A stretch of DNA of 64,000 nt from Yuukianura sp. NJ FZ-2021 (Eukaryota), in NCBI GenBank assembly GCA_046563655.1, contig CM102290.1, forward strand, positions 14,074,001 to 14,138,000, read 5' to 3'. Below the pieces are notes generated by a model, which was not told the DNA's origin, made no database searches, and was given only the letters and a program-made list of their open reading frames with translations. A program made the position numbers and the translations under genes. Shown here one piece after another: positions 11,585-59,061 of this stretch. The stretch's first letter is position 1. Each line of letters opens with the position of its first letter.

Positions 11585-11746
11585 TAGAGATGCCAAAAAT
11601 ATTTAGCTTCCATGCCTCTAGTCTTAACAGAATCAATATTTCGGCTCTATTTGTTACTAAATATTTATTTATTTACCCCTGTCCTTAATATATTGTATTT
11701 ACTTAAATATTTCGCTGGTTTTTAGTAAATATTTTTGGCATGTCTC
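11585..11746. mobile_element. Short hAT-like MITE (family A, copy 1)
   Basis: ~20-bp terminal inverted repeat AGAGATGCCAAAAATATTTA / TAAATATTTTTGGCATGTCT (1 mismatch); ends resemble those of 57774-58068. Confidence 0.7.
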
Positions 11747-53815: not shown

Positions 53816-54128
53816 TAAGGTGCATCGCCTGTATGATTGGTTAGGCGCTCAAAAAGCTACGACCACACTTTTCGCATTAGCATACGCTGCTCCACATCGC
53901 AAAAGTTTGCGATCTAACGAATCTTCGACTGTTTCGCCGTAAAAAGCAAAGGAAGGCAGAAATCCGAGGATTTCTGAAACGTCTTCCAGAAAACCTATGT
54001 TTTCTGGACGAAGGGTCCTGTTTTCGTCAGATCGCAAAGTTTTGCGTTGTGGAGCAGTGTATGCTAATGCGAAAAGTGTGGTCGTAGTTTTTTGAGCGCC
54101 TAACCAGTCATAGACGCGATGCACCTTA
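53816..54128. mobile_element. MITE with ~110-bp TIRs, TA-flanked
   Basis: TAAGGTGCATCGC...GACCACACTTTTCGCATTAGCATAC... mirrored at ~54020-54128. Confidence 0.9.
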
Positions 54129-54886: not shown

Positions 54887-55189
54887 ACTACAGTAATCCG
54901 ATAATCATGGATACGCCAATGTCAAGTTTTGTAAAAGAAATAAATCACGCGATCATTCATGAATTACCATATTGACCTTACTGCAACTATTATTTAGTTA
55001 ACCCACGATTAGAGAGCCAAGTAATCACTTGGCTCTCTAATCGTTCCTGTAAACTTTAGCGTTAAAATAACGAAATTGGAACTGAAGACAGACGGAATTT
55101 GGTGTCAATAAAAACCCAAAATGTAAACTTTATTGAAGTATCTCTATTCGAGTAACGAATAAAATGACGAATAGTACAAAGAGGATTCC

Positions 55190-55853
55190 TTAGAACTGGA
55201 TCATCTGGCCCTGTAACACAGAGAAGGGAGGATTTAGCTCAATGATTAACGTTATTCAAGATTAATGGCGATGTTAACGATTGATCTTACCTTCCTCTTC
55301 TTGTCACCTCCCAATTCAAAGTGCTTGCACCGTTTGAGTGGAACTTGTTTTCTGTATTTGCATTCAGAACATTCCATTCTTAGGACGATCTTCTTTGTAG
55401 TCTTAGCCTGAAATCAGCAATTCAGAACGATTTTATTAGACATTGATTATGAGAACGTTGATATCCAAAAGTTTTACTTTGCAATCATTAGCTTCAATTG
55501 GATCTGAATAATTGAGTTCCTAGTTAGTTGAGCTGTACCGATCAGTATCTGAACTAAATTAGTGATTTACCTTTTTACGGAAGATGGGTTTCGTTTGACC
55601 ACCATAACCTTGCTGTTTCCTGTCGTATCGCCGTCGTCCCTGGGCAGCACTACGCTCTTTGGACTTTTTATACTGCGTTACTTTGTGCAATTTGTGGACT
55701 TTGCACTTTTTGCAGAACGTTTTCCGCTGCTTCGGTATGTTTACCTAGGGAAATAGAAAACGTTTCAATTAAATGACCGTCCAATGTCAAATCCTGTCCA
55801 TTTTGGTCAATTCTGACCTCTTAGAAGTGACTCTACCTAGGTCAACTTACCAT
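55190..55853 (-). CDS. RpL36A: 60S ribosomal protein L36a (eL42); exons 55853-55851, 55745-55571, 55407-55290, 55210-55190
   Basis: [28 protein letters not shown]...[24 protein letters not shown]...[21 protein letters not shown]; not captured by the ORF track. Confidence 0.98.
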
Positions 55854-55957
55854 TTTGGTTAAACCGGTGAACAGAAACTGCTCGAATGACTGAATTAGTA
55901 ATTGACAATACACAGTCCAATAATTTACCAAGAGAGACACACTGCAGACAACCACAT

Positions 55958-55968: not shown

Positions 55969-56549
55969 TGTAGAGGGCCGGCGTGCTCCTCCGTGGTATC
56001 CTTGACAACCGTGGGCGGAGCATCGTTGTCAGGAGAAGGGGCTGGCTAAACCAGTCAATGCTTTGCGCAGGCGCAAATCTCACACGCAGAGCTTTTCTCC
56101 CTTTACTTTTCATAGACTCTCAAACCCCTGCTTTTCATCAAAAGTTAACCTGAAGCTCGTTAATTAAACGTTAATTCAAAAAATGAGTTTGGCAGAACGA
56201 CTGAGCAGGTCAAATGACAGGTCGATCCGGAGTTTGAGGTCAGGTCACCATGACCATTTTTTTGACTATGTCCATGGAGGGGGAGTGCGTCCTCTCCTCT
56301 ACTGCACGAGCTCTGGCAGAGAACAGAGACAGGCATTGGACGAAGCGGGTTCTTTTCTGCTCTTCAGTCGTCAGTTGCCCGTTGACAGAGTCAGAACCGA
56401 CAACCGCTCCGGAACTTCGTCACACGCGTCCAAACACTACCGCTCTACTACGGTAACTCCATACACAACACAGGCTCAAGCGTCCCGTGCCGGCGACATT
56501 CTAGGATTTGGACAGTGTTCCAGTCACTACTCACCTCTATCGATTCATC

Positions 56550-59061
56550 ATGAGTTCGAATAATGACAAGTCTGACGTAGCTGTCGATAAGGTAGAAGCT
56601 AACGATAACAATAAGTCTCCCGACACCAAAACACCGGAGAAAGGAGCCAAGAGACCTTCCGAGGTAAGTTGAATGTCAGCTCAAGGTTTTTAGCACGACG
56701 AATCGCGACGGCACGGTTTGCGGTGTTTTTGGTTATACTGTATTGTCGGCTTATTGTTCAAACAATTTTGGCGCGCGAATTGAAAAATGGGACGCTTTCG
56801 TGTTAACTTGTCAGTACCTAGCCAATGAGTTTGAGTTATTCCAAAAAGTTAATTTATGTTAGATTATACTACTGTAACATTATTATTTCATTTGAATCAT
56901 TTCATTAGTGTCCATTTTTGTCTAAAGAGAGGACCGTGGTCGAGGTTTTGAGTTGTAGAGGTAGCGGAATCGGCGTATTCCATTCTCCAATATAACTTGG
57001 AGCCAAGAACGGCGGAAACCAAAAAGCCGGATAAAAAGCTGAGAGGGAGGGAAGCAGCGGCGTCGGTGTAGAAGAGGCCGCTGGCCGGCCGGTAGATGTA
57101 GATGACTGACGAACGGCCATTCTAGTCACGGTTGAAGTGTGACGAACCAGGTCGTATGTTGTATACGAGCTGGTTCATCAGCATGGCCATTCGGCAGCAT
57201 CGGCTTTTTTGCATGGGCCGGACAGACGCGCTTCTCTCTGTATAGGGAGGAGGGGAGAGAAAGCCAGAGCGGGCTGGCAGTTGGATGGAAACCGGCTTGT
57301 TTCGATAGGAACGAGCCAGAGACGCGCGGGGAATTTGTTAACCCGCCGGGAGTGTCGGAAACCCAGAGCATAAGAGTAGGGTAGACCTATACTTACTCTA
57401 GAGTTGAACACTTACAAGCACTTCCAACGATCTGCCATCATGGATTCAACCACTAGACTTTACAGATTCCCCTTCCTTAAACGCTTGCTTCATAGAACCT
57501 TCTTTTTCGTAGCCTCAAACCATAGAACATTGAGCAATGCCTCTCTGCACTTCAACCGCCGTCACAAAAAAAAATCCATCGCAGCTTTCCATCCAACCGT
57601 ACACCTTTCCTTTCGTATATACACTATAGCCGTAATATTTCTTTTCCAAAAAGTCCAAATTTCAATCACTTTCTACTCTTCCGCTAGTCTATCATTTTGT
57701 AGGTTCGTTGGCTACCCGCTCATGAATTATGTCCAACGTCCTCTGTTGCTGCGTTACGTTTTAGCGTTATTATCAGGGTTGCCAAAAATATGTGCTAAAA
57801 ATACCGGCAGTAATTAATAAACTAAAAATATTTTTTAAAAAGATCGCCCAAATATTTACTTATTTAACATTAAGGCCATGGGTAAATTTATCTATTTATT
57901 TGCCCATGCCCTTAATATTTATAAATAAATATTTAATCAATTTATTTATAAATATTTTATAAATAAATTTATTTACAAATAAATACCTATTTAGTAACGA
58001 AAAATCGGCAAATATTTTTTATTAACATTACGGGGGGGAATGGAGACTAAATATTTTTGACATCCCTGATTCCTACTCGTCAATGGCTTACTACATGTTT
58101 TTAAGGAATGAGGATAAGCAAAGCGTGAGCGGGGAGGAGGGGGAGTAACTATATAAAAAACAAAACGCTCTCCTGACTCCTTTCACAATTTTTCCCGCCA
58201 AGATTTTTGCCTGTTTAGAAGTCAAGGTCTTCTGTGTTTTTTTCCTACTCCAAAAAAAAGCCGGTTCAAAGAACTTGTCTCCATCACCAACACTTACCCC
58301 TGTCTTTTTAAGACGTCCAAATATAGGAGCCATTACCTTTTACCTACTCACAGTTCATAATGCCCTAATACGTTTCTGCTCAGGATGTGAATCTCAAGTT
58401 TTTTGGGAGTCTGGTATGATATTACACTGCAAAAAAATTACTCTTGAATCATTTGGACTCAAGAGTCAAGATCATGAGAGCGTTTAGATTTTGCAATCTT
58501 AATCTCATACAATTCATTGGCTCCAACACGCTCTTTTTCTGAATCTGACCATAAAGTTCGAGACTTTTCTGGAACAGAGTACGAGAGGCATGCGAAAGTC
58601 TTTTTCGTTAGGTTTTAGGCATAACTACTGTTAACTGTTTGGTTTTAGTTCAGCGCCGGCGCGGGAGAATAGCCAAGTCGTTTATGAAACGTTTGATTGT
58701 CGTTTATTTTTTTTGTTTTGCAAAGTGCTAATTCTGTTATTGTTTGTGCAGGATAAAGGAGCGGAACCACCTAAGAAGGCCAAGACGGAAGAGAACGGAG
58801 AGGATGAAAATGTTGAAGATGACGAAGAGGACGTAGACGAAGAAGAGGAGGAGGATGAAGAAGATCTCGGAGGAGAAGGTATGTCACCAACTGGAATCTT
58901 CTGCTAAATCTACTTGTTTTTTCAAAAGTGCAAAGTTTTTGAAAAAGTCGTCATTAGACTTTTGAGTGACTAATTTTTGGTTGTTTTTGTTTTCAGAGGA
59001 AGAAGAAGAGGAGGATGGTGAGGGGGATGGAGATGGGGACGAAGATGAAGATGATGCATAA
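56550..59061 (+). CDS. Small, highly acidic prothymosin-alpha-like nuclear protein, 101 aa; exons 56550-56663, 58752-58878, 58997-59061
   Basis: MSSNNDKSDVAVDKVEANDNNKSPDTKTPEKGAKRPSE|DKGAEPPKKAKTEENGEDENVEDDEE...EDDA; strong splice sites, consistent phases, bipartite NLS-like KR...KKAK, no aromatic residues or Cys. Confidence 0.85.
56766..56779. promoter_or_regulatory. E2F-type site (TTTTGGCGCGCGAA) at the start of intron 1 of the prothymosin-like gene
   Basis: Matches the TTTSSCGC consensus; motif only. Confidence 0.45.
56927..57744 (+). ncRNA. Candidate large structured intronic RNA (unassigned family)
   Basis: GC-rich island with at least 8 hand-identified helices, G-U pairs favouring the + strand, outer closing stems and two perfect 11-12-bp long-range pairings. 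Confidence 0.55.
57774..58068. mobile_element. hAT-like MITE (family A, copy 2, opposite orientation)
   Basis: TIR CAGGGTTGCCAAAAATAT / ATATTTTTGACATCCCTG; AT-rich core; ends resemble 11585-11746; TSD not recognisable. Confidence 0.8.

Follow-up and report, generated by a model that had tools for sequence, protein, structure and literature searches.

A GC-rich island in a long first intron of Yuukianura sp. NJ FZ-2021: one nested palindrome and a possible origin by insertion

Introduction

Two intron-hosted RNAs are among the described systems closest to the locus treated here. In insects and crustaceans, RNase P RNA genes sit in introns and were located with Infernal (Manivannan et al. 2015, PMC4287351), and in Caenorhabditis the telomerase RNA lies in an intron of nmy-2 and carries a template together with H/ACA boxes (PMC12921731). 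In this work, we analyzed a stretch of 64,000 nucleotides (nt) from Yuukianura sp. NJ FZ-2021 (assembly GCA_046563655.1, contig CM102290.1, positions 14,074,001 to 14,138,000 of the forward strand), which is referred to as the window and in which intron 1 of a small gene holds a GC-rich island. An initial annotation of this DNA had described ~820 nt of the intron (56927-57744) as a single highly structured RNA element. It had argued from the presence of RNase P RNA in introns of genes transcribed by RNA polymerase II (Pol II) in insects and crustaceans, a premise that PMC4287351 bears out. We favor, at a probability of roughly 0.4, the reading that the island is insertion-derived, passively transcribed intronic sequence and that the block containing it, 56903-58436, is an old insertion in intron 1.

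Like the intron-embedded RNase P RNA of arthropods (PMC4287351), the island is GC-rich, structured, non-coding and a few hundred nt in size; it likewise occupies an intron of a Pol II gene whose expression is probably broad, with no evident promoter for RNA polymerase III (Pol III). The intronic position is clear, and a sense orientation like that of RNase P RNA is possible, two domains favoring the plus strand and the main junction slightly favoring the minus strand. Unlike RNase P RNA, the island has no match to the nuclear RNase P model RF00009, lacks the conserved-region words CR-I and CR-V in the consensus that we assume for them, and has no P1-like terminal helix above chance. The likeness to the Caenorhabditis telomerase RNA (PMC12921731) is that of a large structured sequence in an intron unusually long for its gene; the island differs in having no template of at least 8 nt for TTAGG, TTAGGG, TCAGG or TGAGG and, in a crude scan, no H/ACA layout.

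Results

The features that bear on the origin of the island are the following, in window coordinates.

56664-58751, plus strand: intron 1, 2,088 nt, GT...AG, read from the sequence and its reading frames
56885-56902, plus strand: 5' copy of an 18-nt direct repeat, a candidate target-site duplication, identical to 58437-58454 at 15 of 18 positions
56927-57470, plus strand: GC-rich, G-skewed, non-coding island, the sole part of the reported unit with excess structure
57772-58070, either strand: AT-rich insertion of ~300 nt resembling a miniature inverted-repeat transposable element (MITE), with 20-nt terminal inverted repeats, inside the block and outside the island
58431-58454, plus strand: run of seven A (A7, 58431-58437) abutting the 3' copy of the repeat (58437-58454), read from the sequence

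The pair 56885-56902 / 58437-58454 is the only direct-repeat pair in intron 1 that matches at 15 or more of 18 positions, and it brackets a block of 1.53 kb (56903-58436) whose 5' end holds the island. Removal of the block would leave an intron of ~540 nt. We read the block as an insertion, first, because the 18-nt repeat and the A7 run bracket it: two of 300 dinucleotide-shuffled introns contained a direct-repeat pair beside a run of at least six A, a figure that flatters our case, the test having been devised after the pair was seen. A target-site duplication and a 3' A tail abutting its downstream copy are features of retroposition by elements without long terminal repeats (non-LTR), and there is a candidate for each here, recognized post hoc and with a short tail.

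A second reason for the insertion reading is that the same intron took up another mobile element, the MITE, which has a relative at ~11.6 kb. Its arms (57772-57791 and 58051-58070) are 90% complementary and it folds with z -5.8 and -9.3, where z, here and below, compares the folding energy (minimum free energy, MFE) with that of dinucleotide shuffles, the number of shuffles differing by test. The relative, at ~11586-11741, is a partly similar copy in opposite orientation (74 to 91% over pieces). Other mobile-element readings were discarded. For a second MITE, with its ends at 58156-58176 and 58472-58492, the exact core is 10 nt, which equals the estimated chance level for 2.3 kb, and the interior is unstructured. 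The island itself does not qualify as a DNA transposon or MITE, as its termini share only AGAGGAC/GTCCTCT and its arms are not significantly alike; the sequences flanking it (...CTAAAG and GTTGCT...) are not duplicated. An ancient inverted duplication that gave the two halves of the reported unit was also rejected, the reverse-complement alignment not being significant (23 of 300 and 50 of 200 shuffles scored as high).

Composition gives a third reason, because the GC content of the island, up to 0.56, is foreign to the surrounding intron (0.31 to 0.36 at 56750-56950). Among all 300-nt windows of the 64 kb (step 100), the highest GC content is that of 57001-57300 (0.56), and the other such windows with GC of at least 0.50 coincide with long open frames or with the promoter block at 56.2-56.6 kb; the island exceeds every coding exon of the window. 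Over 56927-57470, GC ranges from 0.51 to 0.56 and GC skew from +0.21 to +0.27, the skew being strongly positive to ~57400 and strongly negative beyond. CpG is undepleted, with an observed/expected ratio of ~1.0 to 1.14 versus 0.89 overall.

The description of this stretch as a non-coding, non-repetitive GC-rich island thus holds: the composition is real, tandem repeats are absent from the island (all five rows returned by TRF lie at 57916-57985), and no open reading frame (ORF) has a Pfam match. There is no second copy of the island in the 64-kb window and no stop-free frame longer than 89 amino acids (aa) inside the GC-rich core. Across 56880-58460, the 25 stop-free segments of at least 30 aa gave no Pfam family above its cut-off; the sole row was Orexin (E 0.015), under its cut-off. 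Searches of large protein collections returned no candidate for the 86-aa minus-strand frame of the island, and 16 scored candidates for a 145-aa plus-strand frame, none at E <= 0.01. An 82-aa plus-strand frame had three hits among 1.84 billion representatives, a five-fold chlorophyll a/b-binding polyprotein, an SdrD-repeat protein and a multi-domain protein, and these were rejected as inflated by internal repeats of unrelated proteins. Exact patterns of a 33-nt hairpin and of a 24-nt hairpin matched nothing in metagenome contigs, nor did a degenerate hairpin pattern in contigs of prokaryote genomes.

The fourth reason lies in where the excess structure sits, and the structural features are these.

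56944-57004, plus strand: weak 14-bp hairpin with five G-U pairs, which supplants the CTCCAA/TTGGAG stem in the predicted fold
57106-57197, either strand: three-way junction of 92 nt, made of an outer stem and two hairpins
57294-57317, plus strand: 10-bp hairpin GGCTTGTTTC-GATA-GGAACGAGCC with two G-U pairs, pair probability 1.00
57471-57744, plus strand: pyrimidine-rich (C-skewed) tail, unstructured (z +1.5), GC skew -0.43 to -0.51

As the initial annotation had predicted, the 818-nt stretch folds better than its dinucleotide shuffles: on the plus strand it reaches -276.8 kcal/mol versus -239.2 +/- 8.0 for 20 shuffles (z -4.7), and on the minus strand z is -3.2, better than 20 of 20 shuffles on either strand. 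The claim that structure extends over the whole ~820 nt did not survive. It is confined to 56927-57470, which alone gives z -5.0 and -6.5 on the plus strand (two runs of 60 shuffles each) and -5.6 on the minus strand; 57471-57744 is unstructured, and in all 40% of the unit is so. In sliding 150-nt windows, all excess structure falls between ~56900 and 57400, and every z over 57401-57750 lies between +0.4 and +2.1.

All 12 complementary word pairs that had been reported were found in place. Four of these helices have pair probabilities of 0.85 or higher whether 818 nt or 544 nt are folded, namely, the long stem, GTCAC/GTGAC, GAACCAG.../...CTGGTTC and GGCTTGTTTC/GGAACGAGCC, and the rest do not; the CTCCAA/TTGGAG stem has a pair probability of 0.00 to 0.09. 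The outer stems said to close the unit lie near the chance level: complementary words of 8 and 7 nt joining the two end zones turned up in 5.7% of 2,000 shuffles, and the closing stem TAGCGGAA/TTCCGCTA has a pair probability of 0.04. Joining the 3' half to the island yields -45.4 kcal/mol versus -35.9 +/- 4.7 for shuffled 3' halves, with 2 of 40 as good. Since the closing stems are near chance and the 3' 270 nt unstructured, the unit is not demonstrably closed and the tail should not be counted. These data indicated that the reported unit is a GC-rich island of ~540 nt followed by an unstructured pyrimidine-rich tail, not one folded RNA.

Most of the excess structure comes from one three-way junction of 92 to 104 nt and one 10-bp hairpin. 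The outer stem of the junction spans 15 bp (13 pairs and two mismatches), and its hairpins measure 5 to 6 bp (57125-57143) and 14 bp (57144-57176; 13 pairs and one mismatch). Folded as 57100-57203, the junction reaches -49.8 kcal/mol on the plus strand (z -7.3) and -50.5 kcal/mol on the minus strand (z -8.3), with none of 200 shuffles as good in either case; its MFE structure makes up 23% of the ensemble (frequency 0.23), and its pair probabilities are 0.85 to 1.00 whichever of the two stretches, 818 nt or 544 nt, is folded. The island flanks taken without the junction give z -2.4 (1 of 100) and -2.0 (6 of 100) on the plus strand and -1.6 and -1.7 on the minus strand.

G-U pairs had been taken to point to the sense strand of the host gene. 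This is true of two domains: 56927-57040, with z -2.4 on the plus strand (3 of 200) versus -0.4 on the minus strand (65 of 200), and 57288-57323, which holds the 10-bp hairpin, with z -4.9 (0 of 200) versus -2.4 (3 of 200). It fails for the dominant junction, which has no G-U pairs on the plus strand, gains a wobble on the minus strand and is slightly better there. The remaining five sub-domains of the island range from z +0.4 to -2.4 on the plus strand.

The insertion reading is favored because the excess sits in this near-perfect nested palindrome, equally stable on both strands. A junction as stable on the minus strand as on the plus strand shows DNA-level inverted-repeat behavior, like the other strongly structured loci of the window. 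Its mismatches, 3 in ~34 pairs, are compatible with unconstrained decay of the kind that the two copies of the direct repeat (3 of 18) may have undergone. Against the window as a whole, 15 of 639 150-nt windows have z <= -4 on either strand, the best window of the island being among them, and 36 have z <= -3. Averaged over five windows on the plus strand, the island ranks eighth; the sets above it overlap and come from two inverted-repeat loci at 53.5-55.2 kb. Strong z-scores in this genome are mostly those of DNA inverted repeats. More generally, islands of high GC content in which many helices are found by eye can owe nearly all of their statistical signal to one nested palindrome, and closing stems picked by eye can be chance.

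Two homopolymer runs lie close to these structures. One is T6 at 57205-57210, 8 nt past the closing stem of the junction on the plus strand, and the other is A9 at 57568-57576 in the pyrimidine-rich tail, which reads as T9 on the minus strand. Either could be a candidate Pol III terminator; we saw no TATA word, and no word resembling a proximal sequence element (PSE), at a proper distance upstream of them.

The insertion reading is favored, lastly, because no known RNA family or motif fits. In agreement with the suspicion that the sequence belonged to no known family, no Rfam family reached its gathering score anywhere in the window. At E <= 10, 56600-58800 and 56880-57480 gave chance-level rows only: DUF805b, MIR1223, sR10, TP53TG1_1, PyrR205 and a flavivirus xrRNA, together with MIR8706 within the MITE. 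All were below half of their gathering score except DUF805b (18.3 of 35.6 bits, over a 27-nt hairpin). For RF00009 there was no hit at gathering score in the window and no row at E <= 10 in the intron or island, and RNase MRP RNA, 7SK, the signal recognition particle (SRP) RNA, small nuclear RNAs and the known self-cleaving ribozymes had no match with the Rfam 15 covariance models.

Motif searches agreed with the earlier statements that P4 motifs of RNase P/MRP RNA and a CCUAA-type telomerase template are missing. The words CR-I (GNAANNUCNGNG) and CR-V (ACNNNANNNNGNNUA), which we take to form P4 of RNase P RNA, were sought by a consensus that we presume correct: CR-I matches ten times in the window and never in 56000-59000, and CR-V has no match in 56000-59000. 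No template 8-mer occurs in 56927-57744, where 8-mers of (CCTAA)n, (CCTCA)n and (CCTGA)n and 9-mers of (CCCTAA)n all numbered zero, the assumed repeats being ones that may not be the host's. The sole 8-mer at 56-59 kb that could template TTAGG, AACCTAAC at 58607-58614, is outside the island and, being on the minus strand, antisense to the host gene; it probably occurs by chance. An H/ACA layout (hairpin-ANANNA-hairpin-ACA) was not found on either strand of 56880-57800 in a crude scan of low power, in which 15 shuffles also gave none. There is no C box (RTGATGA, i.e., RUGAUGA) on either strand of 56664-58751, and ARAGORN found no tRNA gene in the window. A hammerhead-like reading of CUGACGA at the junction was rejected, because the strands of the junction do not agree with it and Rfam gave no match.

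Discussion

On the insertion reading, the block would most likely have arisen by retroposition, in sense orientation, from either a GC-rich non-coding RNA or a non-autonomous retroelement. Target-primed reverse transcription would have left the 18-nt target-site duplication and the short A tail, and would have stretched intron 1 from ~540 nt to 2.09 kb; the MITE at 57772-58070 would have landed in the block later. The block would now be transcribed passively with the pre-mRNA and spliced out, and the 92-nt three-way junction and the 10-bp stem would be features inherited from the inserted sequence, with no role in the host gene required. Retroposition itself, its direction and the absence of function are what we infer in this scheme. 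The block resembles insertions of short interspersed nuclear elements (SINEs) and processed pseudogenes in its 18-nt flanking repeat, 3' A run, presumed sense orientation, foreign composition and lack of an ORF.

Several observations weigh against an insertion. The exact core of the repeat is only 11 nt, and pairs matching at 15 or more of 18 positions occur at 0.41 per shuffled intron. The A run has just 7 nt, and AATAAA was not seen in the last 40 nt. None of the 25 stop-free segments of at least 30 aa holds a remnant of a reverse transcriptase, endonuclease or transposase. Unlike typical retroposons, the block has a repeat of 15/18, a tail of 7 A's only and no tRNA-, 7SL- or 5S-like head, and it is single-copy in the 64-kb window. 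Its being the GC-richest spot, with undepleted CpG, would also fit a constrained structural RNA gene in an AT-rich genome, and the two domains 56927-57040 and 57288-57323 fold better on the sense strand. Finally, an insertion origin would leave function possible: in arthropods, genes for RNase P RNA have relocated from one intron to another (PMC4287351).

We consider it unlikely, though worth keeping in view, that the island is a new, lineage-restricted structured RNA hosted by the intron and released from it after splicing. Such an RNA would extend over ~270 nt (56.93-57.21 kb, up to the T6 run) or ~540 nt, and the junction would be its protein-binding core. Its maturation would be akin to that of RNase P RNA in arthropods or of telomerase RNA in Caenorhabditis, which are processed out of introns of well-expressed genes. 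The island is the GC peak of the window within an AT-rich intron, its 544 nt fold at z -5 to -6.5 with a sharply defined junction (MFE frequency 0.23), and no ORF fits. The host, housekeeping-like, lies beside eL42/RpL36A, and large intron-hosted RNAs have precedents (PMC4287351 and PMC12921731). G-U pairs of two domains favor the host sense strand, but the junction folds slightly better in antisense and the excess outside it amounts to only ~z -2. The terminal helix that should close such a unit is not above chance; a family match, P4 motifs, a C box, an H/ACA layout and a template are all wanting, and the flanking repeat and A run point to an insertion instead. As with stable intronic sequence RNAs (sisRNAs) and intronic small nucleolar and small Cajal body RNAs (snoRNAs and scaRNAs), an RNA from the island might derive from an intron, and local hairpins could shield it from exonucleases; unlike intronic snoRNAs and scaRNAs, the island has no C box, no H/ACA layout and no snoRNA family match.

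The two readings might also meet. An undescribed RNA of ~270 to 540 nt around the 92-nt junction, excised from intron 1, may itself have arrived by retroposition, which we hold to be rather improbable. If a processed RNA did exist here, it would be the second large structured RNA in a Pol II intron of an arthropod, after RNase P RNA, and it would give a handle on the movement of such genes between introns.

Another unlikely explanation, which we rate on a par with an intron-hosted RNA, is that the island acts at the DNA level as a regulatory sequence of the host gene, be it an intronic enhancer, a G-skewed promoter-proximal region or an internal promoter. Proteins would then bind the palindromes, with any folding of the RNA incidental, which suits a junction whose two strands fold equally well, as those of a DNA palindrome do. 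Location and composition agree with this view: the island lies ~0.55 to 1.1 kb downstream of the likely host start region, and its GC and CpG equal those of the promoter block 56201-56600. TCT-like and initiator-like (Inr-like) motifs at 56350-56376, by the consensus that we assume, presumably mark that start region; the TCT-like pyrimidine initiator word is TTCTTTTC (56350-56357), 5' of the host 5' untranslated region (UTR). In the 5' part of intron 1, 100 to 160 nt upstream of the island, are what we take to be an E2F-like palindrome, TTTGGCGCGCGAA (56767-56779), and a CCAAT box (56822-56826). The word TCATTA (56902-56907), which resembles an Inr, is followed by GGACC (56931-56935), at +28, which we presume to resemble a downstream promoter element (DPE), and GAGAG-type purine runs are common. 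These matches, however, are short and judged by consensus, not scored against chance. A GC content above that of every coding exon of the window is unusual for an enhancer, and we saw neither an in-frame ATG nor a good donor by which an alternative first exon could be spliced to exon 2. The Myc E-box that we believe to lie in intron 1 of mammalian prothymosin has no counterpart, CACGTG being absent from this intron (all four matches in the window are elsewhere).

Less likely still is an unannotated transcript, with the island as a non-coding exon or antisense RNA and not as an excised intron product: it has exon-like GC, two consensus GTAAGT donors on the minus strand (57390-57395 and 57410-57415) and, on the plus strand, a pyrimidine tract followed by AG just 5' of 56928, but 6-nt splice-site words are common by chance, no ORF on either strand has a family match, and three frames have no similar protein in the collections searched. 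A cis element that controls splicing of intron 1, as the initial annotation had offered for a second possibility, is unsupported, no inverted repeat joining the two ends of the intron.

Host gene and neighboring features

The exons of the host gene are as follows.

56550-56663, plus strand: coding sequence of exon 1, 114 nt
58752-58878, plus strand: exon 2, read from the sequence and its reading frames
58997-59061, plus strand: coding sequence of exon 3, the acidic last exon

Intron 2 measures 118 nt, and the product is small and acidic. Exons 1 and 2 have no Pfam family. The name "prothymosin-like" given to the host is therefore apt for its acidic composition and not as a family assignment; it is a composition-only description. 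The gene, on the plus strand, stands head-to-head with that of ribosomal protein eL42/RpL36A on the minus strand and looks like a gene of housekeeping type. The eL42 gene (55150-55870) diverges from it, and the GC-rich block at 55.9-56.5 kb is common to both. Elsewhere in the window, a GCN1 exon is most similar, among named organisms, to those of spiders and beetles (64% identity) and of Artemia (63%), and unnamed assemblies reach 68 to 70% at best, as expected of an arthropod with no near relative in the collections searched. Among sequencing runs, four DNA runs of one sample, which may be the source, contain 0.89 to 0.99 of the words sought and one run under another organism label contains 0.11, a share from which we draw nothing; no RNA run was listed.

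The two inverted-repeat loci that outrank the island lie on the far side of the eL42 gene. In the upstream intergenic DNA, 53816-53921 and 54023-54128 form a 106-nt inverted repeat (92% complementary, 101-nt spacer, z -6.0 and -6.9) that looks like a foldback or MITE-like element. The strongest sense-biased signal in the window comes from a perfect 18-bp hairpin with a 4-nt loop at 55005-55044, located past the end of a small plus-strand gene and close to the eL42 3' end; the interval containing it, 55001-55150, has z -8.4 on the plus strand and -4.7 on the minus strand.

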